Notes: generated from the sequence alone by a model not told the origin. A stretch of DNA of 64,000 nucleotides from Acidimicrobiales bacterium (GCA_039583615.1 JAVKSQ010000005.1:1004-65003), one strand, 5' to 3'. Shown: positions 11,018-62,517, numbered from the stretch's first letter. Made by a program: numbers and translations.

Positions 11018-12395
11018 TGGTCACGCCGGTGACCCGCAGGGTGGGCTGCCCGCAGCCGACCGGCACGCTCTGGCCGTCCTTGCCGCAGGTCCCGGGCACC
11101 ATGGCGAAGTCGTTGCCCACCGCGTCGATCCGGCGCAGCACCTCCGGACCGTTGCCGATGAGGTTCGCCTCCCTCAACGGCTCGGTGACCCGGCCGTCCT
11201 CGATGAGGTAGGCCTCGGTCATCCCGAACACGAAATCCCCGGTGGCGGTGTTGACCTGACCTCCTCCCAGCTGGGCCACGTAGACGCCCCTCGGGGTCTG
11301 GGCCACTATCTCGTCAGGGTCCTCGGCCCCGTTGGCCAGGTAGGTGTTGGTCATCCTCACCATGGGCAGGTGCTGGTAGCTCTGGCGCCGGCCGTTGCCG
11401 GACGACGCCTTGGACTGCTTGCGGGCCCGCAGCCAGTCCCACATGTAGTCGGTGAGGACCCCGTCGGCGATCAGCACGTTGCGCTGGGCCGGGCGGCCCT
11501 CGTCGTCGATGGCGAAGGCGCCCCACTCGCCGCCCATGGTGCCCTGGTCCACCAGGGTCACCAGTGGGCTGGCCACTAGCTGGCCCATCTTGGCGGTGTA
11601 GACCGAGCTGTCCTTGGCTATGTGGTCGGCCTCCAGGCCGTGGCCGCAGGCCTCGTGGAACAAGATGCCCCCGCTGCCCCCCTTGATGACCACCGGCAGG
11701 GTGCCGCTCGGCGCCGGCCGGGCAGCCAGCTTGGTCAGCGCCCGCCGGGCCGCCTCCCCGGCCACCTCCTCCACCGTCACCCGCTCGAACAGCTCGAACC
11801 CCACGGTGGCAGCCGCGGTGTGGAAGCCGGTCTGCATGCCGGTGTCGCCCACCGCCACGCAGCTCACGCTGAAGCGGGTCCGGACCTGGTCGTCACCGGC
11901 CAGCAGGCCGTCGCTGTTGGCCACCAGGATGCGACGGTGGCTGTCGCCGTAGCCGGCGCTCACCTGGGTGACGGCGCCCCCGGCCGACCGGGCGGCCTCG
12001 TCGGCCCGGGCCAGCAGCTCGACCTTGGCCGCCTTGCCCACCTCGTCGGGGGCGACCTGGGCCGCCGCTGGGCGTGAGTGGGCAGTGGAGGCGTGGGCGC
12101 CGACCGCAATTTTTCGAAATATGCCGTCATCCTGCCGGGCCACCGCGGCCGCCGCCCGGGCGGCTGCCAGCAGCCCTTCCTCGGACAGGTCGGCAGTGTG
12201 GGCGAAGCCGGTGGTCTCGCCCACCACCACCCGGATGCCGGCACCCCGGTCCCGCCCGGAGGCCAGCTCCTCGACCTTGGCGTCGTCGAGGGAGGCCGAC
12301 GAGGTGCGGCGGTCCTCGGCGAACAGCTCGGCGAAGTCGCCCCCCCGGCGCAGGGACTCACCCAGGACGCGCTCGACGGTGGACGCTTCGATCAC
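10995..12395 (-). CDS. tldD: Metalloprotease TldD
   Basis: Contains the HEACGHGLE (HExxxH) motif and RVVVGETTGFAHTADLS. The ORF is full length at 466 aa. Confidence 0.9.
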   Translation of the reverse strand: MIEASTVERVLGESLRRGGDFAELFAEDRRTSSASLDDAKVEELASGRDRGAGIRVVVGETTGFAHTADLSEEGLLAAARAAAAVARQDDGIFRKIAVGAHASTAHSRPAAAQVAPDEVGKAAKVELLARADEAARSAGGAVTQVSAGYGDSHRRILVANSDGLLAGDDQVRTRFSVSCVAVGDTGMQTGFHTAAATVGFELFERVTVEEVAGEAARRALTKLAARPAPSGTLPVVIKGGSGGILFHEACGHGLEADHIAKDSSVYTAKMGQLVASPLVTLVDQGTMGGEWGAFAIDDEGRPAQRNVLIADGVLTDYMWDWLRARKQSKASSGNGRRQSYQHLPMVRMTNTYLANGAEDPDEIVAQTPRGVYVAQLGGGQVNTATGDFVFGMTEAYLIEDGRVTEPLREANLIGNGPEVLRRIDAVGNDFAMVPGTCGKDGQSVPVGCGQPTLRVTGVTIGGTAGG

Positions 12396-12487
12396 GGCTG
12401 CTCCTCCCGGGGTGGCTCGACCGGGCTTAGGCTAGTGGCCTTGCGACCAGGCGACGAAGAGGCGGGCCGCCTGGCCCGGTCCGGGCC

Positions 12488-14278
12488 GTGAGCCCGGTCT
12501 GGCGTCGGGGGGGCAAAGCCGCTCCGGAGGAGACGCGTCCGGTACCGTCTGGGGTTGTGGATCCAGACCGGGAGACCTCGCCGGGGCCCGAACCGGCTGA
12601 TCCGACCAGCGTGCCTGCCGGGTCAGCGGCACCGGGGTCAGGGGCACCGGGGCCAGGGGCACCGGGGCCAGGGGCACCGGGGTCAGGGGATCCAGCCGGG
12701 GGCAGCCCCCAGGCAGGGCCAGGAGATCCAGCCGGGGGCAGCCCGCCGGCGAGGCCAGGAGGGACAGTGACCGACGAGGCCGAGGCCCTGCGGGGCCACA
12801 AGGCACGCGACGACGCCATCCAGGCGGCCCTGGCGGCGATCACGGTGCGGATAGAGGCGCTGGCCGGGGCATCGTCGTCTTTTCGTGACCTGGTGGCGGA
12901 CAAGCTCGTCGACCACCCGGCGTCAGGTGTGGGGACGTTGCCGGAGGTGGCGGCCCCCGACTACGGGACCCGCCCCCCGCCGCCCCCCCTCTACGGCTTC
13001 CCGACCGAGGCTCCGGCGCTCGGGGACCGCCCGGAGGATCTCGACTACGCCGCCGGGGAGGTGACCGAGCGCCGTCTGGGCGAGGTCCAGCGAGGCCTGC
13101 TCGGCGTGCAGGGCGGCCTGCGGGAGCTGGCCCATGCCTCGGACGCCCTGGGGCGGACGCTGCGGGGGTTGGCTGACGGCACCATCCGCCTGCCGTCGAT
13201 CGACGCAGTGGAGCAGCGCACCGACGAGCTCGGGCGTCGTCTGCTGCGGCGCCTCGACGGCGTGGAGCAGTCCCTGGCCGCCGCCGTCCGCGACGAGCAG
13301 GCCTGGCTGCGGGCCGGTCTGCCGCCGGAGCTGGCCGCCAAGGCCCAGACGGCCATCGTGGCGTCGCTGGAGCCCCTGGAGACGGCCCTTCACCAGCGGC
13401 TTGACCAGTTCGTCGACACGGTGCTCTCCGGTGTCAGCGAAGCGCTGAAGGAGACCGAGGATGCGGTGGTGGAGCGCATACAGGAGGAGGTCAGGGCCGA
13501 GCAACGGGCGATGAGCCGGCGCCTGGAGAAGCGTCTGGACATGCTCACCCAGGAGGTGGCCGAGCAGGGGGCGCTGGGTGGGCATCTCGAGGAGATCGTC
13601 GACGGGCTGGCCCAGCAGCTGGCCGGAGGCCAGGGCGGGCTGGGGGCGCACCTGGAGGCACTCGAGAGGGAGATCGGTGGCCTGGTCAAGGCGGAGAACG
13701 CCACCGCCCTGCAGCTGTTGAACGGACGCCTGGAGGAGCGCCTGGACGCGCTGGCCGAGGAGCTGGGCGCCCTGCAGAGGGCCGAGAAGGCCACCGGCCT
13801 CAAGCTGACCGGCGTCCGGGGCCGCCTGGCCGACGCCCTCGCTGCGCTGGACAGGCTGAGCACCCGTCCCGGTACGGGTTCGCCCGAGCTGGCCGAGGTG
13901 ATCGAGGTCAATCGCCTGGTGGTCGAGCGCCTGGAGGAGCTGAGCCTGGAGATGCAGACCGTGCGCCGCCGCCTGCCGGTGCGCGGGCCGGTCCCTCGAC
14001 CGGCCGGTACGCAGCCCGCCGCGGTGGACGAGGAGGACGAAGAGGAGGAGGAGGTCCTGGGACCGCCTGGTCGCGGGGCACCGGTGCCGGGGCTGCCCGG
14101 GAGGCAGCGGGGCTCGCGAGGACCGCTCGTGCCAGGACCAGGTGCCCGGCGGGCGAGCAACCAGCGCCCACCCGTGCGCCGGGCGGGAGAGGAGGGGCCG
14201 CCGCCTGCCCCCCGGCGCCGCCCGACCCCCCCGGTGAAGCTGGTGCCCCCGAGGGGTCCGGTACGCGACTCCGGGTGA
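12488..14278 (+). CDS. Hypothetical coiled-coil protein with Pro/Gly-rich repeat N-terminus and Pro/Arg-rich C-terminus
   Basis: Only the plus frame shows consistently G/C-ending codons and heptad-like Leu/Glu/Arg repeats (RLEERLDALAEELGALQRAEK...). The overlapping minus ORFs are low complexity. The start is uncertain (GTG 12488 or GTG about 12557). Confidence 0.6.
   Translation: MSPVWRRGGKAAPEETRPVPSGVVDPDRETSPGPEPADPTSVPAGSAAPGSGAPGPGAPGPGAPGSGDPAGGSPQAGPGDPAGGSPPARPGGTVTDEAEALRGHKARDDAIQAALAAITVRIEALAGASSSFRDLVADKLVDHPASGVGTLPEVAAPDYGTRPPPPPLYGFPTEAPALGDRPEDLDYAAGEVTERRLGEVQRGLLGVQGGLRELAHASDALGRTLRGLADGTIRLPSIDAVEQRTDELGRRLLRRLDGVEQSLAAAVRDEQAWLRAGLPPELAAKAQTAIVASLEPLETALHQRLDQFVDTVLSGVSEALKETEDAVVERIQEEVRAEQRAMSRRLEKRLDMLTQEVAEQGALGGHLEEIVDGLAQQLAGGQGGLGAHLEALEREIGGLVKAENATALQLLNGRLEERLDALAEELGALQRAEKATGLKLTGVRGRLADALAALDRLSTRPGTGSPELAEVIEVNRLVVERLEELSLEMQTVRRRLPVRGPVPRPAGTQPAAVDEEDEEEEEVLGPPGRGAPVPGLPGRQRGSRGPLVPGPGARRASNQRPPVRRAGEEGPPPAPRRRPTPPVKLVPPRGPVRDSG
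12629..12760. repeat. 15-bp tandem repeat x4 (gcaccggggYcaggg, 12629-12688) followed by 36-bp repeat x2 (12689-12760), in frame
   Basis: Read directly. The repeats encode APGSG/APGPG x4 and DPAGGSPxxxPG x2. Confidence 0.9.
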
Positions 14279-14297
14279 AGGGCCCGGTGCCGAGGGC

Positions 14298-15995
14298 TCA
14301 GTAGGCGCCGCGGCCGCGGACAACCGCCGCCATGGTCTTGGCCAGGATCACGAAGTCCAGCCCGAGCGACCAGTTCTCGACGTAGTACAGGTCCAGGCGC
14401 ACGGCATCCAGCCAGGCGAGCTCGCAGCGCCCGCTCACCTGCCACAGGCCGGTGAGACCGGGCCGGACGAGGAGGCGCCGACGGGTGTCGTCGTCGTAGC
14501 TCTCGACTTCACCGGGCAGGGGCGGACGGGGTCCGACCATGGACATGTGACCGCTCACCACGTGCCACAGCTGGGGGAGCTCGTCGAGCGAGAAGCGCCG
14601 CAGCCACCGCCCCACCGGCGTGACTCGGGGGTCCCGCCGGATCTTGAACAGGGGACCGTCGTGCTCGTTGAGGTGGCGGATGGTGGCCAGCTCGGCATCG
14701 GCCCCGGCCGCCATGGTGCGGAACTTCCACATGACGAACGGCCGCCCGGCCCGCCCCACCCGACACTGGCGGAACAGGACCGGCCCCGGACTGCTCAGCT
14801 TCACGGCCAGCGCCACGAGGGCCAGTACCGGTGCCAGCAGCACGAGGAGCACGCTGGCGGTCAGACGTTCGATCACGTGCTTGGCCACTCGGTCAGGGCC
14901 GCCGAAGCGCGGCTCCTCCACGTGCAACAGGGGCAGGCCGCCTACCGGTCGGATACCGATCCTCGGGCCGGCCACTCCGGTGACGCCCGGCGCCACGATC
15001 AGGTCCACGCCGGTGCGCTCCAGGCGCGCTGCCAGGCGGCGGATGGCTCCCAGCCCCAGCACGGCGCCGTCGGCCACCACCACCGCGTCGGCCTCACCGG
15101 CCAGGACCCACTGGATGATCTCGTCGCGCTGGGTCACCACGGGGACCGGCTCCCCGTCCACGTCGACCTGGGCGCCCGAGGGGGCTCCGGTGCAGGCTCC
15201 CACCACTGACAGACCGCCGTGCGGGGCCCGGCGCAGGTGGCGCACCAGCTCCTCGACGTGGCTCGCCGACCCGATGAGGACCGCCCGCTGCACGCACTTG
15301 CCGCGGGCCCGCTCGGCGTGCAGCCATCGCCGGGCTCCCCAGTGGGCGAAGAAGGTCACCGCCAGCGCCAAGGGGCCGACCAGGCCCACGAACTCCCGGG
15401 AGACGTTGACGTGGGACAAGAAGGCGAGCACCGCCATGGCCCCCACGAAGCGCACGGAGGCGTCGAGGATGCGCCGGTACTCCTCCGTGCCGGCACCGAG
15501 CGTCCGGGAGTCGTAGACGCCGCTGGCCAACAGGGTGAGGATCCACAGCGGGGCCAGGAGGGCCGAGAGGAGCGGGTAGGCGATAGAGGTGCCCACCACG
15601 TGGGTGTCGGCGGCATTGGCAGTGCCGAAGCGGACGAACTCGGCCAGCAGGCCGCTGCCGGCCAGCACGATGGCATCGGCCACCACCAGAGCGGCGACAT
15701 AGGGTCGCCGCCACCGACCGGCGGATCGGGTGGCCACCGGCCGCAGCCGGGGCCGGCGGCTGGCGGGGAGGCCGACCTCGGCTACCGGGGCACCGATCGG
15801 TCCAGCCAGCTCGGCGATGGCCGGTCCTCCATAGGCGCTGAGGGCAGAGGCGCTGAGGGCAGAGGCGCTGAGGGCAGAGGCGCTCAGGGGAGAGGCGCTC
15901 AGGGCAGAGGCGCTCAGGGCAGAGCCGACCCCGCCCAGGAGCGTCCCCTCTTGCCCGGGACCATCCCTGCCAACCGCACCGAGATCGGCTGCCAT
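14298..15995 (-). CDS. Polyprenyl-phosphate sugar phosphotransferase (WbaP/exopolysaccharide priming enzyme family)
   Basis: The C-terminal domain carries VLFRQCRVGRAGRPFVMWKFRTM, DELPQLWHVVSGHMSMVGPRP and RPGLTGLWQVSGR, and there are N-terminal TM segments. The start is placed at the ATG (complement of 15993-15995, MAADLGAV...). The remainder of track ORF 14298..17000 is antisense to the TylF-like gene. Confidence 0.85.
   Translation of the reverse strand: MAADLGAVGRDGPGQEGTLLGGVGSALSASALSASPLSASALSASALSASALSAYGGPAIAELAGPIGAPVAEVGLPASRRPRLRPVATRSAGRWRRPYVAALVVADAIVLAGSGLLAEFVRFGTANAADTHVVGTSIAYPLLSALLAPLWILTLLASGVYDSRTLGAGTEEYRRILDASVRFVGAMAVLAFLSHVNVSREFVGLVGPLALAVTFFAHWGARRWLHAERARGKCVQRAVLIGSASHVEELVRHLRRAPHGGLSVVGACTGAPSGAQVDVDGEPVPVVTQRDEIIQWVLAGEADAVVVADGAVLGLGAIRRLAARLERTGVDLIVAPGVTGVAGPRIGIRPVGGLPLLHVEEPRFGGPDRVAKHVIERLTASVLLVLLAPVLALVALAVKLSSPGPVLFRQCRVGRAGRPFVMWKFRTMAAGADAELATIRHLNEHDGPLFKIRRDPRVTPVGRWLRRFSLDELPQLWHVVSGHMSMVGPRPPLPGEVESYDDDTRRRLLVRPGLTGLWQVSGRCELAWLDAVRLDLYYVENWSLGLDFVILAKTMAAVVRGRGAY
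15835..15924. repeat. 15-bp tandem repeat x6 (gcgctSagggSagag), in frame ((ALSAS)n) in the N-terminus of the priming transferase
   Basis: Read directly: six contiguous units with 1-2 substitutions. Confidence 0.95.
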
Positions 15996-54973: not shown

Positions 54974-55046
54974 TCCGGGGTAGCTCAATCGGCAGAGCAC
55001 GCGGCTGTTAACCGCGGTGTTGAGAGTTCGAGTCTCTCCCCCGGAG
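54974..55046 (+). tRNA. tRNA-Asn (anticodon GTT)
   Basis: Hand fold: TCCGGGG TA GCTC AATCGGCA GAGC A CGCGG CTGTTAA CCGCG GTGTT GAGAG TTCGAGT CTCTC CCCCGGA G. Confidence 0.9.
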
Positions 55047-55063
55047 CACCCGCCGCAGTCCCC

Positions 55064-55136
55064 GGGCCCGTAGCTCAGTGGTCAGAGCATGGGACTCATA
55101 ATCCCCTGGTCGTGGGTTCGATCCCCACCGGGCCCA
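55064..55136 (+). tRNA. tRNA with CAT anticodon (elongator Met; Ile2 cannot be excluded)
   Basis: Hand fold: GGGCCCG TA GCTC AGTGGTCA GAGC A TGGGA CTCATAA TCCCC TGGTC GTGGG TTCGATC CCCAC CGGGCCC A. The G1:C72 pair argues against an initiator. Confidence 0.85.
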
Positions 55137-55194
55137 CTGATGTCTCTCCTTTTCAGCCGCCTTGTTCCGTCTGTTCAGCCCCTCTGATGAGGTC

Positions 55195-55230
55195 AACCCA
55201 ACGGTCGACCCAACAGCTAACCCAACAACG
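55195..55230. repeat. Three 12-bp-spaced direct repeats (A/G)ACCCAAC between tRNA-Met and the integrase remnant (arm-site-like)
   Basis: aacccaac at 55195-55202, gacccaac at 55207-55214 and aacccaac at 55219-55226, read directly. Confidence 0.7.
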
Positions 55231-55248
55231 GGGAGGGGGCCATTGCCG

Positions 55249-55550
55249 GGGAGTGTGCGGCAGCGGCGCCCGGGAGTGTGGGAGCTGAGGGTCTACGCCG
55301 GGAAGAGGCCAGGCGGGTACGCCATCGCCACACCAGCTTCGTGGGCTCCAAGCGGCCTGCTGGCACCGAGCTGGCCCGCCTGGTCGCCGAGCAGGAGCGG
55401 GCGCCAGTGGTGGCCGACGAGGAGAGCCGGGGTGGGAACCGGTCACCACCGTCAACGACGCCATCGGCGGCTGGCGGGACAACGGATGGCAGGACCTCAG
55501 CCCCACCACCACCCGGCGCTACCAGAGCCTGTGGACGGTCCACGCGCCTG
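55249..55550 (+). pseudogene. Tyrosine-integrase N-terminal remnant, split over three frames and lacking the catalytic domain
   Basis: Frame a reads GSVRQRRPGVWELRVYAGK. Frame b reads RHTSFVGSKRPAGTELARLVAEQE. Frame c reads TVNDAIGGWRDNGWQDLSPTTTRRYQSLWTVHA. These strings match the usual N-terminal arm-binding and SAM-like region order of actinobacterial phage-type integrases. Nothing integrase-like follows about 55550. Confidence 0.6.
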
Positions 55551-55652
55551 GGCCCCAGTCATGTCGGGCTGACGACGGGGCGCGAACAAGAAAGCCGCCG
55601 CGTAGGTGTGCGTAAGCGCCACCTCGGAGACCGTCCACATAGAACCCTACTT

Positions 55653-55702
55653 ACAAGAACAGAACGGTCATCCTTGCATTTTGTTCTTGTCAACGCTAGC
55701 CT
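55653..55702 (+). promoter_or_regulatory. Candidate promoter (TTGCAT-17 nt-TAGCCT) overlapped by a perfect 9-bp inverted repeat upstream of the cassette
   Basis: ACAAGAACA (55653-55661) and TGTTCTTGT (55682-55690) are exact reverse complements with a 20-nt spacer. TTGCAT lies at 55674-55679 and TAGCCT at 55697-55702, about 22 nt before the first cassette ATG (55725). Confidence 0.3.
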
Positions 55703-55724
55703 CACCCGTGAACAGGGAGCGAGC

Positions 55725-55958
55725 ATGGCAGAGCAGGGGAAGCCCAGAGGTCGCACCGTCTTCTCCGTTCGACTGGATGGCTTGGAACTGCCGTCGGAGA
55801 TCACCCTTCGGATCGCCGTCGCCGTGCGCCGCGCCATTCTTGCCGAGATGGCTGAAGTCGATCTTGTGTCCGGCTTTCGCGTCCAGGATTTGGCAGCCCT
55901 GGAGAGCGGTGGCGGGACGCAGGGAATTGCGATCGTCGCCGACGTTGCGGAGGACTAG
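55725..55958 (+). CDS. Small ORF (77 aa), candidate precursor peptide or accessory; no Cys, C-terminal ...LESGGGTQGIAIVADVAED
   Basis: This is the last 77 codons of track ORF 55278..55958. The ATG is preceded by AGGGAG. The stop is followed after 2 nt by the next GTG. Confidence 0.5.
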   Translation: MAEQGKPRGRTVFSVRLDGLELPSEITLRIAVAVRRAILAEMAEVDLVSGFRVQDLAALESGGGTQGIAIVADVAED

Positions 55959-55960
55959 CT

Positions 55961-56377
55961 GTGCGCTCGATGCAAGTCGCCAGGGCTCACGAATGCCTCT
56001 GCCCGAGCGGACGTTGCCGGGAGGGGGCCAAGTTGCTGGGCGTAGTTGGGACTGATGGCTGTGTCAGCTTCCTGACGCCAGCCATTCCAATAAGCGAGGT
56101 CTTTGTTGACAAGGCATTGGCGATCGGGCGCACCGGTGCCCGATTCCGTTTCGCTGAGCCATGCGCGCAGAGTGACTGTGAGCACTGGGCTGGGGAGCGC
56201 TGCCAGTTGATCGATCGTTTCATCGTAGACGGACCGTGCGACGATGTGGACTCCTCGAGAACGAAGCTCCCGGTGTGTGGCATCCGGGTCTCTTGCCGAT
56301 GGTATGGACAGCGGGGCCGGCGTGCCTGCGCGGTGTGTCCCATGGTCATTCGTGAGCCTTTAGCGGCGATTTCATAA
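55961..56377 (+). CDS. Cysteine-rich protein (138 aa, 12 Cys), function unknown
   Basis: Track ORF. Cys strings are ECLCPSGRC, DGC, EPCAQSDCEHW, ERC, GPC, PVCGIRVSC and RACAVCP. It is tightly coupled to the upstream ORF. The overlapping minus ORF is low complexity and contrary to the operon direction. Confidence 0.5.
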   Translation: MRSMQVARAHECLCPSGRCREGAKLLGVVGTDGCVSFLTPAIPISEVFVDKALAIGRTGARFRFAEPCAQSDCEHWAGERCQLIDRFIVDGPCDDVDSSRTKLPVCGIRVSCRWYGQRGRRACAVCPMVIREPLAAIS

Positions 56378-56408
56378 CGAAGATTTCTCAACCAGAAGGA
56401 GGAGTCGC

Positions 56409-56657
56409 ATGGAAGACGAACCGAGAGAGGATGAGGATACCGTCGTCCCGATCAGGGAGCGGCATGTCGTCATGACGCCTACCGGCGTTACCTTTGTTCT
56501 CAATGAGGAAGACCAGCGTCAGGCTCGTCGCTGCCTTGAGCGGACCGGCAACATCACCATCAATTTCGGGGAAGTGACTGTCTCAAGTCTCAGTGAGATC
56601 AGGCGGCTCGAGCGGATCGCTGACGGGCCCGATGGCGGTGTCGGTCCGATCGACTGA
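56409..56657 (+). CDS. Small ORF (82 aa), candidate RiPP precursor; acidic N-terminus, C-terminal ...RIADGPDGGVGPID
   Basis: A strong SD (AAGGAGG at 56396-56402) lies 6 nt before the ATG. The stop is followed after 2 nt by the GTG start of the DUF692 gene. Confidence 0.6.
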   Translation: MEDEPREDEDTVVPIRERHVVMTPTGVTFVLNEEDQRQARRCLERTGNITINFGEVTVSSLSEIRRLERIADGPDGGVGPID

Positions 56658-56659
56658 CA

Positions 56660-57541
56660 GTGCCAACGCCCAGGTTGACGCCGGCCATCGGTCTCGGCTC
56701 GGATGCCGTTGCCGTGGGCATGGCATACAGCAGAGCCGCTGCAGGCCTTGTATGCGACTTGCTCGATGATCTCGACTACGTCGAGTATCCCTATGAGTTG
56801 CTGATGTGCAACGCCGCCGCGGCCGAGATGGCTTGCAACTCGACCGCCGTGCTGCACTGCGCAAGTCTGTCATTGGCGTCGGGTGACCCACCCGACGCGG
56901 CGGTCCTCCACACCGTCGCCGACTGGGCCGATCGGCTCGACTCTCCCTGGGTGGGTGAGCATTTCGCATTTGTGGCCGCCCGGAACCCTGGCCCGTGGGC
57001 AGGGGACGACCCGGGGCGGGAAGACAGAGTCTTCAACATCGGCTTTGCGATCAGCCCGCCGTTGAACGCCGACACGGTCGAGAGCGTTGCAGAGGCGTTG
57101 GCGGCCGTCGTGACGGTTGTGCGACGACCATTCGTTATCGAGAACTCCCCGGTCTATTTCCCAATGCCGGGTTCCGGGATGGGGCAGGGAGAAGCGTTCA
57201 CGGCACTAACTCGCCTCAGCGATGTTGGCGTGCTGATGGACTTGGCCCATCTGCTGATTACCTGCGACACGATGGGATTGGACCCGTTGGCTGAGCTCCG
57301 CCGCTTTCCGCTCGATCGCGTGGTCGAGGTGCATCTCTCTGGGGTTTCGCGGGATTCCGGTGTGCTGTGGGACGATCATGCGTCCGCCCCCGTAGCAGCG
57401 GAGTACGAGCTCTTGAACGTCGTACTCCATGATGCGCCAGTTCGCGCGATCACGCATGAGTACAACTGGGCGCCTAGGTTTCCCGCGGACGTCGCCCGCC
57501 GGGAGATTGACCGCACCCACCAGATACTGGGCTCCAGGTAG
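56660..57541 (+). CDS. DUF692-family protein (MbnB/TglH-like multinuclear non-heme iron oxidative enzyme, MNIO)
   Basis: Family-order strings are present: AIGLGSD, VLHCASLSLAS, WVGEHFAF, PFVIENSPVYF, GVLMDLAHLL, VVEVHLSG, LWDDHAS and ITHEYNW. These provide His/Glu/Asp ligand candidates in the order I recall for MbnB-type TIM-barrel enzymes. Confidence 0.8.
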   Translation: MPTPRLTPAIGLGSDAVAVGMAYSRAAAGLVCDLLDDLDYVEYPYELLMCNAAAAEMACNSTAVLHCASLSLASGDPPDAAVLHTVADWADRLDSPWVGEHFAFVAARNPGPWAGDDPGREDRVFNIGFAISPPLNADTVESVAEALAAVVTVVRRPFVIENSPVYFPMPGSGMGQGEAFTALTRLSDVGVLMDLAHLLITCDTMGLDPLAELRRFPLDRVVEVHLSGVSRDSGVLWDDHASAPVAAEYELLNVVLHDAPVRAITHEYNWAPRFPADVARREIDRTHQILGSR

Positions 57542-57569
57542 TGACCGAGGGCAAGGCGGCCCCGAGGCC

Positions 57570-59513
57570 ATGACGGTCGAGACTCGCGCCGTCAACGCCA
57601 TGATCGCGCGAGGTCTCGTCGAACCCTCATTCCTTGTCGCTCTCGATCAGGATAGAGGCCGGGTACTCGACGACATGGGGATCTCCAGCGGGACGCGCCA
57701 GGATTTCATCGGACTTGATTGCCATCGCCTGGCGCTGATGGCCACGTTCATATGTAAGGTGAAGAACAATGACCTCTGGAGCACCCTGCCCCTAACCCGG
57801 GCGCTGCTACAGGAATACGGCAGCGAGCTAGAGGTGTTCGGGGTCTTCAGCCGACGGAGTCCGCAGCGTGGTGGCTCGCTTCACGAGCGCGTCAGCGCGT
57901 TGGTCGAGTGCCTTCTGTCCTACGCGTCCGCTCGCCGCGGCCAGGTCCCAGGCCTGGAGGATGTCGTCCGCCACGAGTGGCTTGTAGCCCGGTTCTCGAA
58001 CGGGTGGGGACTAGAGGCATCGTCGTTGGACACGGTCGATGACGACCCTCCCGAGGCGCGGCCAGCGAACCTCTGGCGACCAAGGATTCGAGGGACGGTC
58101 TTGGTGCAGAGCTACGAGCACGACCCGCTGCGTGTGCAGCTTGCATGGCAAGCACGGGAGTGGACCAGATCGATGGCTCCGCCGACCGAGCCAACATTTT
58201 TGTGCTACTCGTTGGGCGACACGCCGGGAAGCCGGCTCCGAGTCTTTAGGATGGATCCAGCCGTGGCTCTGATTGTCGGCTGGGTGGATGGTCAGCGGTC
58301 TCCGATCGAAATTGCCAATCTCATGGGTGCAGGCACGGACGCGGCGCTCGTTGTCCGAGTCCTTCTCGCCGCAGCTCAGGAGGGGATCATTCGTTCCCCG
58401 AGCGCTGAGGTCTTGGCCGCGCTTCAACGACATCACGGAGACGTCGGTGGCCTGCCGGCTAAAAGCTCGAAGGAGCACGAACCACTCTTCGGCGGTAGCC
58501 GTCAGCGGGGGCCGGATCAAGTGCTCGATCTTGTGAGCGGCTACGCCGCTGGCCGCCTCCTATACACGCTGCAGCGAATCGGAGCCCTTGGGCGCTTCGG
58601 CACTCCGAGTAGGGCTGCTTCTGTCGCGGTGGAGCTCGGCGTTGATCGAGCGTGGCTCGAGGCCGTGGTGCAGTTTCTCGCGGTGACTGGAGGCGTCTTC
58701 CGCCAGCTCGACGGCGGCCGTTACGTCGTCGAGTTGGACGAACGCGAACGACAGCGGCTGAACTTCGAGTTGACCAAGTTCGTCGGGGCCTACGGAGCGT
58801 GCCTCGATGCGGTTGGGCCGGCTCCTGACGTCGTCGACGCTGACGCATTTGCTGATGCGTTCAGCGCGTCGGTTCACAGCCGTGCTGATCGCCCCTACCA
58901 TGGCTCGTTGATTCCGGGACTGCTCCGCGAGTTTGGCGTGGCATCGGGACTCTTGGATCTTGGCTGTGGGACCGGTGACCTTCTCATCGATCTAGCGGTC
59001 AGCGACGAGGGCTTCCACGGGATCGGAATCGATGAGAACCGCGCGATGTGTGCTCGTGCGGTGGCGGAGGCCGGACGAGCAGCTGTCCTGCGACGAGTGC
59101 GCATATTTAGTGGCGATGCGTTCGATGTCCTGGCAAATCTTCCGCTAGATGCGATGTGCCCGATGACGGCGGCGCACTCGGCGAGCTTCTTCAACGCCCT
59201 GTTTGCGAACGGGCATCGCCGAGCGGTTGACATCCTCACGCTGCTCAGCGACCGGCTCGGCCGCCGCCTTTTGTTCATCGACGACTACTACGGGCAGCTG
59301 GGTGTGGACTTCGATGCTCATGTTGGTCTGACATGGTCGATGATGCAGGACCTCGTCCAAGTCTGTTCCGGGCAGGGCGTGCCACCGAGGGAGCGGGTCG
59401 ATTGGGAGGCGGTGTACCAACGTGCGGGGTGCCGGCTTCTCCGCTCGTATGAGGGCACGCTCGGCGGGTTCCCGCGCTTTATCCACGTGGTCCAACTCGC
59501 AGCCGCCTCGTAG
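57570..59513 (+). CDS. Three-module fusion: MNIO-partner-like N-terminal region, PqqD-like recognition element, winged-helix plus class I SAM O-methyltransferase
   Basis: The start is ATG 57570 (MTVETRAV...). Mid-region: RVFRMDPAVALIVGWVDGQRSPIEIANLMGAGTDAALVVRVLLAAAQEGII (PqqD/RRE-like). Then LVSGYAAGRLLYTLQRIGALGRFGTPSRAASVAVELGVD (OMT dimerisation/wHTH-like). Then LLDLGCGTGDLLIDLA and IGIDENRAM (SAM motifs I and II). Confidence 0.7.
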   Translation: MTVETRAVNAMIARGLVEPSFLVALDQDRGRVLDDMGISSGTRQDFIGLDCHRLALMATFICKVKNNDLWSTLPLTRALLQEYGSELEVFGVFSRRSPQRGGSLHERVSALVECLLSYASARRGQVPGLEDVVRHEWLVARFSNGWGLEASSLDTVDDDPPEARPANLWRPRIRGTVLVQSYEHDPLRVQLAWQAREWTRSMAPPTEPTFLCYSLGDTPGSRLRVFRMDPAVALIVGWVDGQRSPIEIANLMGAGTDAALVVRVLLAAAQEGIIRSPSAEVLAALQRHHGDVGGLPAKSSKEHEPLFGGSRQRGPDQVLDLVSGYAAGRLLYTLQRIGALGRFGTPSRAASVAVELGVDRAWLEAVVQFLAVTGGVFRQLDGGRYVVELDERERQRLNFELTKFVGAYGACLDAVGPAPDVVDADAFADAFSASVHSRADRPYHGSLIPGLLREFGVASGLLDLGCGTGDLLIDLAVSDEGFHGIGIDENRAMCARAVAEAGRAAVLRRVRIFSGDAFDVLANLPLDAMCPMTAAHSASFFNALFANGHRRAVDILTLLSDRLGRRLLFIDDYYGQLGVDFDAHVGLTWSMMQDLVQVCSGQGVPPRERVDWEAVYQRAGCRLLRSYEGTLGGFPRFIHVVQLAAAS

Positions 59514-59516
59514 CCG

Positions 59517-60188
59517 ATGGCCACAGCGACCATTAGGCCCGTGGCAGCGACCTGGGACGGTGTTTTGCCGCCCAGCGAGCTCAGTCAGCTGTTGGAGTAC
59601 GCGGTGTATCGCGAGAGCGAGTTCGTCGACACCCAGGTCCTCGGTGCCGATGATGGCGCGGTCTCGGTCGTGGATCGGAACATGAGACGGAACACGCACT
59701 TACGGGGCACCGCTAATGTGCCATGTGCTGTCATGCGGCGCCTCAAGGAGTATATCCCAGTGTTGGCCCGGTCCATTGGTCAGGATGATGACAGATGTTC
59801 AGACGGTGTGTACGAGGCAGAGATTACCGCCACGGGACATGGTGGCTTCTTCACCGCTCACGTCGACGATGCGAATGCTCGTGTACGGGATCGCTCGATC
59901 AGCTTCGTTCTCTTCTTCAGCGAATGCCCCAGACCATTTCGAGGTGGCCATCTCTGCATCGAACGCGACTGGAGGGACGACGATCAACTGTTTATCTTCG
60001 ATGCTGTGCGGGATGGCCGACTGAGCAGGTCTGAGGTAGCCGAGATCATAGAGCCCAAAGCCAACCGGCTCGTCGTCTTTGCGAGTCATCGGCTCCATGA
60101 GGTTCGGCCGGTGTGGACCAGGTCGAGCCAGTTCCGGTGCTCGAGATTCACGGTGACCGGCTTCCTCCGATCCTCCGATCGGCGTTAG
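59517..60188 (+). CDS. 2-oxoglutarate/Fe(II)-dependent oxygenase (prolyl-4-hydroxylase-like)
   Basis: FFTAHVDD provides the HxD, ISFVLFFS follows, and NRLVVFASHRLHEVRPV provides the distal His and Arg. It lies 3 nt after the preceding stop. Confidence 0.75.
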   Translation: MATATIRPVAATWDGVLPPSELSQLLEYAVYRESEFVDTQVLGADDGAVSVVDRNMRRNTHLRGTANVPCAVMRRLKEYIPVLARSIGQDDDRCSDGVYEAEITATGHGGFFTAHVDDANARVRDRSISFVLFFSECPRPFRGGHLCIERDWRDDDQLFIFDAVRDGRLSRSEVAEIIEPKANRLVVFASHRLHEVRPVWTRSSQFRCSRFTVTGFLRSSDRR

Positions 60189-60220: not shown

Positions 60221-61240
60221 GTGGGGAGACCAGGTGCGGATCCCGGAGCGGGGAAGTTCGTCTTGCCAAGTAACGCCGCCGACGTGGAGGGCACCGTCAT
60301 GGCTGGCGGTATCGGGACGCCCGGCTCCGAGACCAGCCGCTTGTGGATGCGAAGGAGAGGATCGGCCTTCCTGGCGCGCTGGCCCAGCGTCTCGTTCTGG
60401 ACCCGGCGGCGAACCTTGTTCCTGGAGCTCTCGAAGGAGGTCCGCCAAAGCGTCCGGGCCGAGGTGGCCAAGGCCAGGGAAGGGCTGAGCGAGGGCCAGG
60501 GTCACCAGGTCGTCGTCGACCCGCTGCTCCGCTACCGGATCACCGTGGAGATCCTGACCGAGTCGGGCCAACTCCGGGTGATGGACGAGCGGCTGGAGGC
60601 GCTCAAGGCCGACGGGACCCGGACGCCAGCCGACGCCCGTTTATCTGGCAGGAGGTGGCCGAGAGCTGGATCCGCCCTTCGTCGGGAGGAAGAGGGCCAT
60701 ACCCTCTACGAGGAGATCGGCCAGGACCGCCCGATCGCCTCCAAGCGGCTCTACCCTCCCCACTACCCCCACATCTCCGCCTTGGGCGAGGAGCTGGCCC
60801 GCTGGCGGACCTACTACCTGGAGCCCTCGGCCATGCGCAGGGAGACGCCGCTGCGGGAGGTGACCGTCCTCCCACCCGACGGCAGCGACTGGAGCCTCTG
60901 TCGGTGGTGGGCTACGAGGAGCCCGAGAACGGTGTTCACCCCGACCGTCTCTCGATGGTGGGCCGGGTCCTGTCGAGCGCGGCCGAGCGCGGCCGAGCGC
61001 GGCACGACGTAGTACCTGGTGAACACCCACTCGCCGCTGCTGTCGGAGTATTTCCTGGGGGCGGGCGCTGCGGCCCGGATCGTCCGCTGCTCCCGCCACG
61101 GCCGGGAGACCCTGTTCGAGACCCTCGACGACCTCAACCTCCTCAGTGCCAGTACCATCGCCGACGGGCTGGCCGACGACTTCTCCCCACCGCTGGCCTC
61201 GACATTCGCCCAGCGAATGGTGCGGGGAGACTTCCGCTGA
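60221..61240 (+). pseudogene. ABC-type (AAA_15/21-like) ATPase remnants spread over three frames
   Basis: Fragments are RYRITVEILTESGQLRVMDERLEAL, ...LARWRTYYLEPSAMRRETPL, VVGYEEPENGVHPDRL (Walker B/D-loop-like, about 60907-60950) and NTHSPLLSEYF (H-loop-like, about 61019-61050). They sit in different frames. No intact Walker A was seen. Confidence 0.5.
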
Positions 61241-61938: not shown

Positions 61939-62517
61939 ATGAATCGCAGGGAGCTCGTCAGCGCTGTCGCCACCCACACTGGTGTCGATTCTCGTGACGT
62001 GGACAAGGTGTTGCGAGGTGCCACCGAAGTCATCGAGGCAGTGGCAGCCAAGGGCGAGCAGGTGACGATCAGCGGCTTCGCCAAGTTCGCTCGGGTGGAT
62101 CGGCCGGCCCGTATGGCTCGCAACCCAGGGACGGGGGAGCCGGTCAAGGTGAGAGCGTCCAAGAAGGCAAGGATCACCCCCCTCAAGGGCTTCAAGGACG
62201 CGGTGATGAGGCCCATGGCCGCCCCCAAGCTGGCCAAGGGAGTGTGGCCGCCCGTGCCAGCCAAGGCTTCGCCAGGTGCAGGCTCAGCTCGCCGGGCCGG
62301 GCCGGCCCGGGCGGTGACATCCAGGGCTCCAGCCAGGTCGTCGCCCGCCAGCAAGGCTGGTGCGAGCAAGGCGGCCGCCACCAAGCCCGCCCCGCCAGGA
62401 CCGCCAGCCAAGCGGGCTGGAGCCGCCAAGGCAGCCCCAGCGGCCAAGAAGCCCGCCAGCGGCCCTCGCTATGTCAGTCGCCTGCCTTCCCGCCAAGGCG
62501 GGCCGTCTCCTTCTTGA
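61939..62517 (+). CDS. hup: HU-family nucleoid protein with long Ala/Lys/Pro-rich C-terminal tail (actinobacterial HupB/Hlp type)
   Basis: MNRRELVSAVATHTGV...VTISGFAKFARVDRPARMARNPGTGEPVKV is followed by a PAKKA-like tail. AGGAGA precedes the ATG. Confidence 0.88.
   Translation: MNRRELVSAVATHTGVDSRDVDKVLRGATEVIEAVAAKGEQVTISGFAKFARVDRPARMARNPGTGEPVKVRASKKARITPLKGFKDAVMRPMAAPKLAKGVWPPVPAKASPGAGSARRAGPARAVTSRAPARSSPASKAGASKAAATKPAPPGPPAKRAGAAKAAPAAKKPASGPRYVSRLPSRQGGPSPS

Follow-up and report, generated by a model that had tools for sequence, protein, structure and literature searches.

What is the product of a tightly packed gene cassette that stands out from its surroundings by a low G+C content (GC)? 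The question is raised by a stretch of 64,000 nucleotides (nt) from an Acidimicrobiales bacterium (GCA_039583615.1, JAVKSQ010000005.1:1004-65003), here called the window. Six of its open reading frames (ORFs) had been read, in an original prediction made from the sequence alone, as a modification cassette for peptides synthesised by the ribosome and modified after translation (RiPPs), built around an enzyme of the DUF692 family, the multinuclear non-heme iron oxidases (MNIOs), and belonging to an uncharacterised pathway. The MNIO-centred RiPP cassette was borne out by Pfam, by NCBIfam and by the hallmarks of the precursor. The pathway type proved to be a known one, with ApyA, ApyH and ApyI-ApyS as the best NCBIfam matches of the ORFs of 82, 293 and 647 amino acids (aa). 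Our answer, to which we give a probability of roughly three in four, is that four of the genes form a pathway of the aminopyruvatide (apy) class, in which the C-terminal Asp of the peptide would be turned into a methylated keto acid and an oxygenase would tailor the product further, and that the cassette was probably acquired horizontally.

The genes of the cassette

All six ORFs lie co-directionally on the + strand at the places predicted, separated by gaps of 2, 31, 2, 28 and 3 nt. The start given for the cassette (55653) fell in non-coding sequence, 72 nt 5' of the first ATG. The features are the following.

55725-55958, + strand: 77-aa ORF, first gene of a two-gene module adjoining the apy genes, no family match
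55961-56377, + strand: 138-aa Cys-rich protein, second gene of the two-gene module
56397-56402, + strand: Shine-Dalgarno sequence AGGAGG, 6 nt 5' of the precursor ATG, read from the sequence
56409-56657, + strand: ApyA-like precursor peptide, 82 aa (NCBIfam, motif and terminal Asp)
56660-57541, + strand: ApyH-like MNIO (DUF692), 293 aa (Pfam and NCBIfam), with an alternative start that gives 273 aa
57570-59513, + strand: ApyI-ApyS fusion, 647 aa (NCBIfam), within a longer ORF of 694 aa
59517-60188, + strand: 2-oxoglutarate (2OG)-Fe(II) oxygenase of the prolyl-hydroxylase-like group, 223 aa (Pfam PF13640)
54974-55137, + strand: tRNA-Asn and tRNA-Met (ARAGORN, Rfam), directly 5' of the low-GC segment

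The same 77-, 82-, 647- and 223-aa products, and the 273-aa version of the MNIO, come from an independent gene caller (public NCBI contig). The GC of the cassette is 62.5% against 70.5% upstream and 69.8% downstream, and at third codon positions it is 0.67-0.75 against 0.82-0.87 in the neighbouring backbone genes. The composition is foreign to the backbone, as had been claimed from counts (32/60 and 33/60 in the cassette, 44/60 in glyQS) that were correct.

The apy system was described in Burkholderia thailandensis E264, where it consists of ApyA, ApyH, ApyI, ApyS, ApyD and ApyO; ApyHI makes aminopyruvic acid from the Asp that ends ApyA, and ApyS methylates its beta carbon (Nguyen et al., ACS Cent Sci 2024, PMC11117315). 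Its precursors are recognised by a central C-B-X2-3-G motif, the Cys of which is essential for ApyHI, together with a terminal Asp. In the published clusters the MNIO ApyH is universal and defines the class, with ApyS in 93%, ApyD in 97% and the cytochrome P450 (P450) ApyO in 74% (PMC11117315). NCBIfam models already exist for the apy components. Expressed in E. coli, ApyHI was inactive. On several independent lines of evidence, positions 56409-60188 are very probably a four-gene RiPP pathway of this class, with the 82-aa ORF as its substrate.

The 82-aa ORF matches NCBIfam NF050152 broader_ApyA ('ApyA family aminopyruvatide-related RiPP') with 39.7 bits (cut-off 40) and an E of 3.8e-10. It consists of a conserved leader followed by a Pro/Gly-rich tail ending ...DGPDGGVGPID, and it carries both hallmarks: C42-L-E-R-T-G47 (nt 56532-56549) follows the C-B-X2-3-G pattern, and Asp82 (nt 56652-56654) is the last residue before the stop. 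For comparison, a pattern scan seeded with an MNIO alignment gave 80 genome and 80 metagenome loci, to which exact look-ups added contigs; counts refer to a first set of 83 loci or to the full set of 171, the window included in each. An ORF with both hallmarks stands 5' of the MNIO gene in 79 of the 83 loci, and the pair of hallmarks lies upstream of the MNIO in 154 of the 171. The prediction had proposed a short precursor gene immediately upstream of the MNIO, and a check of whether homologous loci keep small ORFs there; both came out in its favour, with the substrate narrowed to the 82-aa ORF specifically and not the other small ORFs.

For the MNIO, the DUF692 assignment was confirmed by PF05114 (100.1 bits, cut-off 25, E 1.6e-28). 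The best NCBIfam model is ApyH (294.5 bits, cut-off 400, E 6.7e-88, over 272 of 283 model positions), followed by BufB with 80.8 bits, and the enzyme groups with the ApyH-type enzymes of the 170 other loci. The seven short strings in which the family had been recognised are present, at residues 64, 97, 159, 192, 222, 237 and 265. The residues H66, H101, E161, D194, H197, H225, D238, H240 and E267 are invariant across 26 MNIO sequences (E100 and E223 are also listed among the invariant ones) and lie in motifs that can be aligned with those of TglH, 3BWW and MbnB, so that the proposed likeness to the metal-ligand positions of MbnB and TglH held. For the individual ligands of Fe1-3 we assume the assignments of the MbnB structures.

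The partner protein expected downstream of the MNIO, fused to a methyltransferase, is there, as ApyI and ApyS matches in one ORF. Residues 6-270 (nt 57585-58379) are the ApyI part (NCBIfam, 76.7 bits, cut-off 200, E 1.7e-21), which by tblastn matches separate ApyI genes down to E 3e-29. After a linker, residues 318-643 (nt 58521-59498) are the ApyS part (194.8 bits, cut-off 400, E 2e-57). The PqqD-like element that had been proposed is simply part of ApyI: Pfam gave no match for such a recognition element in the 647-aa protein at E <= 0.1. Nor is the second half an O-methyltransferase; its closest NCBIfam models are ApyS and the 2-ketoarginine C-methyltransferases (TIGR04543, E 8e-07), and a GCGTG motif for binding S-adenosylmethionine (SAM) was spotted by eye in its translation. 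ApyS has been compared with MppJ, and ApyS-type enzymes resemble keto-acid C-methyltransferases (PMC11117315). Tethering ApyS to ApyI would plausibly keep the methyltransferase where the reactive keto acid arises. Two genes of the classical system are missing: there is no ORF for the B12-radical-SAM enzyme ApyD in 55.1-61.5 kb and no P450 ApyO in the cassette, where the precursor tail ends in G-P-I-D.

The gene after the fusion encodes, as predicted, a 2OG oxygenase (PF13640, 55.1 bits, cut-off 27). H115, D117 and H194 (the HxD...H triad) and the 2OG-binding R210 are invariant among its homologues. Searched as a single sequence against the PDB it gave no matches; the profile gave 4IW3, a bacterial prolyl hydroxylase, as its best match (E 0.006). 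The top Foldseek matches of a model with a mean predicted local distance difference test (pLDDT) score of 59 were PHD2 and the Pseudomonas prolyl 4-hydroxylase (E 6e-09, template modelling score about 0.5).

Related loci and the clade with fusion and oxygenase

The usual layout, found at 67 loci, is ApyA, ApyH, ApyI, a gene of about 2 kb and ApyS, and the 2 kb gene is ApyD by NCBIfam in Streptomyces smaragdinus (L003). The window belongs elsewhere. With L001/L002, L083-L086 and L163-L170 it makes up 15 of the 171 loci, one monophyletic clade whose MNIOs are at least 49% identical to that of the window and whose precursors are 59-76% identical to its precursor. When 160 distinct MNIO sequences were placed in a neighbour-joining tree, all loci with both fusion and 2OG oxygenase fell in this single clade. 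Where the contig is long enough, its members have ApyI and ApyS in one frame, no B12-radical-SAM gene between them and the 2OG oxygenase directly after. The fusion is in a single frame without stops in L001, L083, L085, L166, L169 and L170; in L163 and L164 the two parts were called as overlapping genes. Homologues of the oxygenase occur only in this clade and in none of the approximately 150 other loci. A partial exception within it is L168, with a partial oxygenase match and no ApyS match. Short gaps between ApyI and ApyS made L029 and L149 candidates for further fusions and both were inspected (L139 was left out), but they have separate adjacent ORFs. The fusion recurs in the MNIO clade, a point that a neighbourhood check suggested by the prediction was meant to test, and the same check found the 77-aa/12-Cys pair beside the cassette only in L001/L002 and L165.

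The tails of the precursors differ in the same way. We compared the 10 distinct tails of the clade with the 124 of all other loci. From the motif Cys to the end there are 37-46 residues in the clade and 27-35 in the others. A Pro is found within the last eight residues in 10/10 against 37/124, and a Pro at -3 (GPID, TPID, QPVD, QPTD) in 8/10 against 0/124. Aromatic residues at -2 and -4 are present in 0/10 and in 67/124, respectively. The oxygenase and the Pro-rich tails therefore co-occur, and they do so specifically in this clade.

From its fold and from this correlation, we tentatively suggest proline hydroxylation in the precursor tail as the role of the oxygenase. A rather improbable alternative is that the enzyme acts on the new alpha-keto-acid terminus or on the adjacent residue and, for instance, hydroxylates the warhead or decarboxylates it oxidatively. 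If so, the C-terminal end-group would be one not yet seen in ribosomal peptides, and the fusion of ApyI with ApyS would serve to hand over a labile intermediate between enzymes.

Several members of the clade deserve separate mention. The closest relative of the window cassette is L165 (MNIO 71% and Cys-rich protein 64% identical). Its assembly is full of frameshifts, with the MNIO called at 421 aa and both fusion and oxygenase split (L165 8001-11400), and for that reason it is unfit for counts of domain architecture. In L169 (4697-10055) and L170 (4909-10387) the four-gene module is followed by genes for a Cupin_8/JmjC protein, DUF6445, a luciferase-like monooxygenase and TfuA, and a Cupin_8 gene is also found in L166 and L168. 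Given these extra candidate tailoring genes, some members of the clade may make more heavily modified products. Downstream of the cassette of L001 and on the opposite strand (12066-15727) there are genes for a CHAT-domain protein (a caspase-like cysteine protease), a sigma-70 family protein and a P450; this may be of interest, given that cysteine proteases are inhibited by aminopyruvatides.

A proposed pathway and its alternatives

We propose the following route, in which the reactions of MNIO and methyltransferase are deduced from homology at 35-47% identity. The substrate would be the 82-aa peptide. Its conserved leader, including the essential motif Cys, would be bound by the ApyI-like half at the N-terminus of the fusion, working with the MNIO. 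From the C-terminal Asp the MNIO would, by oxidation and decarboxylation, make aminopyruvic acid, which is an alpha-keto-beta-amino acid. The ApyS-like methyltransferase, tethered to the partner, would then methylate the beta carbon to give 3-amino-2-oxobutanoate. The 2OG oxygenase would modify the Pro-rich tail further, most plausibly by proline hydroxylation, in place of the P450 and B12-radical-SAM tailoring of the classical pathway. The likely product would be a linear peptide with a keto-acid warhead, a candidate protease inhibitor. Formation of aminopyruvate and its C-methylation are supported by the retention of an ApyS-type keto-acid methyltransferase and by the conserved ligands of the third iron.

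A number of points weigh against this reading. All apy scores are below the NCBI cut-offs (39.7/40, 294.5/400, 76.7/200 and 194.8/400), which means that functional equivalence is not guaranteed. These cut-offs are narrow, as can be seen in Streptomyces L003, which passes those for ApyH and ApyA and fails those for ApyI, ApyD and ApyS. No canonical ApyH of the set shares more than 47% identity with the MNIO. The ApyHI of B. thailandensis required a prior P450 cross-link, and in the classical system the aromatic pair at -2/-4 accompanies the P450 (PMC11117315); such a cross-link is impossible here, so the substrate requirements must differ. The correlation between Pro and oxygenase is confounded by shared ancestry, because a single clade counts as one evolutionary event, and the structural model of the oxygenase is poor (mean pLDDT 59). 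The cassette contains no gene for a protease, an exporter or immunity; for the first two this had been claimed and the ORF listing agrees. Finally, the neighbouring genes are decayed, which bears on expression in this host.

The last point leads to the alternative that survives best, although we consider it unlikely: the cassette could be a horizontally acquired relic, silent or non-functional in its host. This is compatible with the apy assignment, as it concerns expression and not identity. It fits the GC 8 points under the backbone, the lack of protease and exporter, the adjoining tRNA genes and the frame-shifted ORF fragments on both sides. The low-GC segment starts just after tRNA-Asn and tRNA-Met and is followed by frame-broken ORF fragments, and the tRNA genes may mark the boundary of an island; direct repeats of the tRNA 3' end, of the att type, were looked for and only short chance repeats were seen. 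Scans for promoters and terminators gave counts equal to the shuffled expectation, with no promoter-like site above chance upstream. Against a relic, none of the six ORFs is broken, no catalytic residue has been lost, the precursor gene has a strong ribosome-binding site in front of it, and the apy cluster of B. thailandensis likewise lacks a protease (PMC11117315).

Homologous cassettes (L083, L163, L001, L168) are also below their flanks in GC (L083 with 55% against 67%, L163 with 55% against 61-66%). In L163 the gene after the oxygenase encodes a transposase of the IS481 type, and L168 has transposase genes on its flanks. The low GC in several relatives together with these transposases suggests that the cassette moves between high-GC hosts.

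As to the fragments themselves, directly after tRNA-Met (55162-55612) there are three frame-shifted pieces, ..GSVRQRRPGVWELRVYAGKRPGG.., ..KRPAGTELARLVAEQ.. and ..TVNDAIGGWRDNGWQDLSPTTTRRYQSLW... They resemble the N-terminus of an actinobacterial tyrosine integrase, but Pfam and PHROGs returned nothing even for the stitched sequence and we make no claim of a remnant. Where the low-GC segment ends downstream, 60221-61240 consists of overlapping ORFs in different frames with a weak match to AAA_21 (AbiEii-like ATPase) and looks like a decayed gene. Beyond it, 61939-62517 encodes a DNA-binding protein of the HU type whose long C-terminal tail is rich in Ala, Lys and Pro, a feature typical of Actinomycetota and, next to the 70% GC, the main pointer to the phylum of the host. 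The Rfam scan of the window found only the two tRNAs; a 'Plastid-ycf2 5'UTR' match antisense to tRNA-Met (55064-55137, - strand) scored 39.8 bits, under the gathering threshold of 65.7, and was discarded as an artefact of tRNA-like structure.

An alternative of somewhat lower probability is that the MNIO of this divergent clade carries out a different chemistry, for example plain hydroxylation of Asp at the beta carbon, the reaction of PesH and PflD, or modification of the single Cys, with the methyltransferase acting on another nucleophile. The MNIO score is below the cut-off of the ApyH equivalog, MNIOs less than 50% identical are known to differ in reaction (PMC13060819, PMC12452194), and the tail is longer and without the aromatic residues of the studied substrate. 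However, the Cys motif and the Asp at the C-terminus are strictly conserved, and an ApyS-type keto-acid methyltransferase is retained, even in fused form, which would only be sensible if a keto acid is made. Besides, the Fe3 ligands D238 and H240 are invariant here, whereas PesH and PflD are without them (PMC13060819).

The two genes upstream of the precursor had been counted as part of the pathway, and this did not stand: they form a separate widespread module, seen without an MNIO in four other contexts, that probably has no share in the apy chemistry. The 138-aa protein contains exactly the 12 Cys that had been claimed, nine of them conserved across its family (C14, C19, C68, C73, C81, C106, C112, C123 and C126) in the motifs CPSGRC, RFRFAEPC..C..W.G..CG, LP.C.IR.SCRW and AC.VCP. 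A total of 824 representative proteins match it at E <= 1e-3. Neither ORF has a match in Pfam, NCBIfam or PHROG, and the fold search of the 138-aa protein against the PDB gave nothing below E = 1. In L171-L174, which are unrelated contexts, an abutting or overlapping ORF of 77-85 aa precedes the Cys-rich gene (approximately 135 aa), with no MNIO nearby in 4/4. The positions of the module are as follows.

Window: 55725-56377
L171: 5747-6432
L172: 5763-6531
L173: 5745-6402
L174: 43-665

The small ORFs of L171-L173 are weakly similar to the 77-aa ORF of the window, and that of L174, of 77 aa, was recognised by its position before the Cys-rich gene. Beside an apy cassette the pair is found only in L001/L002 and L165. 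The module may be co-transcribed with the apy genes and is unlikely to be an MNIO substrate. That all six ORFs are one pathway, with the 12-Cys protein or the 77-aa ORF as a (second) substrate of the MNIO, is highly improbable: the tight co-directional spacing, with gaps of 2 and 31 nt, the company that the two ORFs keep with the cassette in its two nearest relatives and the action of most MNIOs on Cys would agree with it, but the pair is absent 5' of the cassette in L083, L163 and L166, the large Cys-rich family has its small partner ORF and no MNIO in the four other contexts examined, the C-terminus of the 138-aa protein is not conserved and ApyH-type enzymes target a C-terminal Asp.

An antisense ORF of 134 aa (55987-56391, - strand) overlaps the Cys-rich gene. 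Codon-position statistics cannot pick the strand, because the wobble position is common to both frames, but the large protein family of the 138-aa product settles the coding strand in its favour. At the homologous place in L001 (7216-7602) one gene caller took the antisense strand, a typical high-GC artefact that can hide the real gene. The 77-aa/Cys-rich pair is a large unannotated family that apparently nobody has named.

Comparison with known systems

The prediction had held that no described cluster has this gene set. This does not apply to the pathway type, already modelled by NCBI, and it does appear to apply to the variant, with its ApyI-ApyS fusion, PHD-like oxygenase, long Pro-rich tail and lack of radical SAM enzyme and P450, which is absent from the 69-cluster data set of PMC11117315 and was not found in the open-access literature searched. 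The only 2OG gene of the 2024 RODEO data set, separated from a canonical cluster by 3.6 kb with unrelated genes in between, is regarded as incidental. According to a 2026 preprint, the keto-acid warhead of aminopyruvatides inhibits papain-family cysteine proteases at sub-nanomolar concentration (PMC13192836). In the clade this warhead would sit on a scaffold that is linear, rich in proline, possibly with hydroxyproline, and free of the biaryl macrocycle, and this would widen the accessible inhibitor chemistry. With no cassette P450 and no aromatics to cross-link, the clade is a natural system in which to learn what ApyHI demands of a substrate. A construct for studying the structure and mechanism of the cooperation between partner, oxidase and methyltransferase is provided ready-made by the natural fusion, and the variant is a good lead for genome mining.

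The more distant comparisons concern single enzymes. TglHI and MbnBC (8HI7, 7DZ9, 7TCX) have in common with the cassette a TIM-barrel MNIO with shared metal-ligand motifs and the need of an adjacent partner. They differ in acting on Cys, and the similarity to our MNIO is limited to the C-terminal half (TglH with E 5e-08, MbnB by profile only). For the oxygenase, the closest solved structures appear to be PHD2/EGLN1 and the Pseudomonas PPHD (4IW3), which share the 2OG-FeII_Oxy_3 fold, the HxD...H triad and the Arg and act on Pro in polypeptides; the identity is only 16-20% and the likeness is drawn from a low-confidence model.

The pes (nitrilobacillin) cluster of Peribacillus simplex (PMC13060819) is a looser precedent for the pairing of an Asp-directed MNIO with a 2OG-dependent proline hydroxylase. 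It has an MNIO and partner acting on an Asp near the C-terminus and a 2OG enzyme that hydroxylates a nearby Pro. The differences are that PesH only hydroxylates Asp and is without the Fe3 ligands, that PesO belongs to an unrelated HExxH 2OG family, and that the pathway yields a nitrile and has no methyltransferase.

Among canonical apy clusters the nearest genome relative is that of Streptomyces smaragdinus L003 (NZ_WEGJ01000009.1), probably of the same phylum, with an MNIO 47% identical and a precursor leader that can be aligned with that of the window (VVITPS..F.L..E.R..A..CLERSG...). Its genes are in the order ApyA, ApyH, ApyI, ApyD, ApyS, its tail ends ...GKEGVIVD and it has no 2OG oxygenase. 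Compared with the apy cluster of B. thailandensis, the Acidimicrobiales cassette has ApyI and ApyS in one polypeptide, no B12-radical-SAM enzyme, no P450, no aromatics at -2/-4, a longer Pro/Gly-rich tail and an added 2OG oxygenase. Both share the C-B-X2-3-G motif and terminal Asp of the precursor, an MNIO gene directly after the precursor gene, a partner protein, a keto-acid C-methyltransferase and a cluster without a protease.

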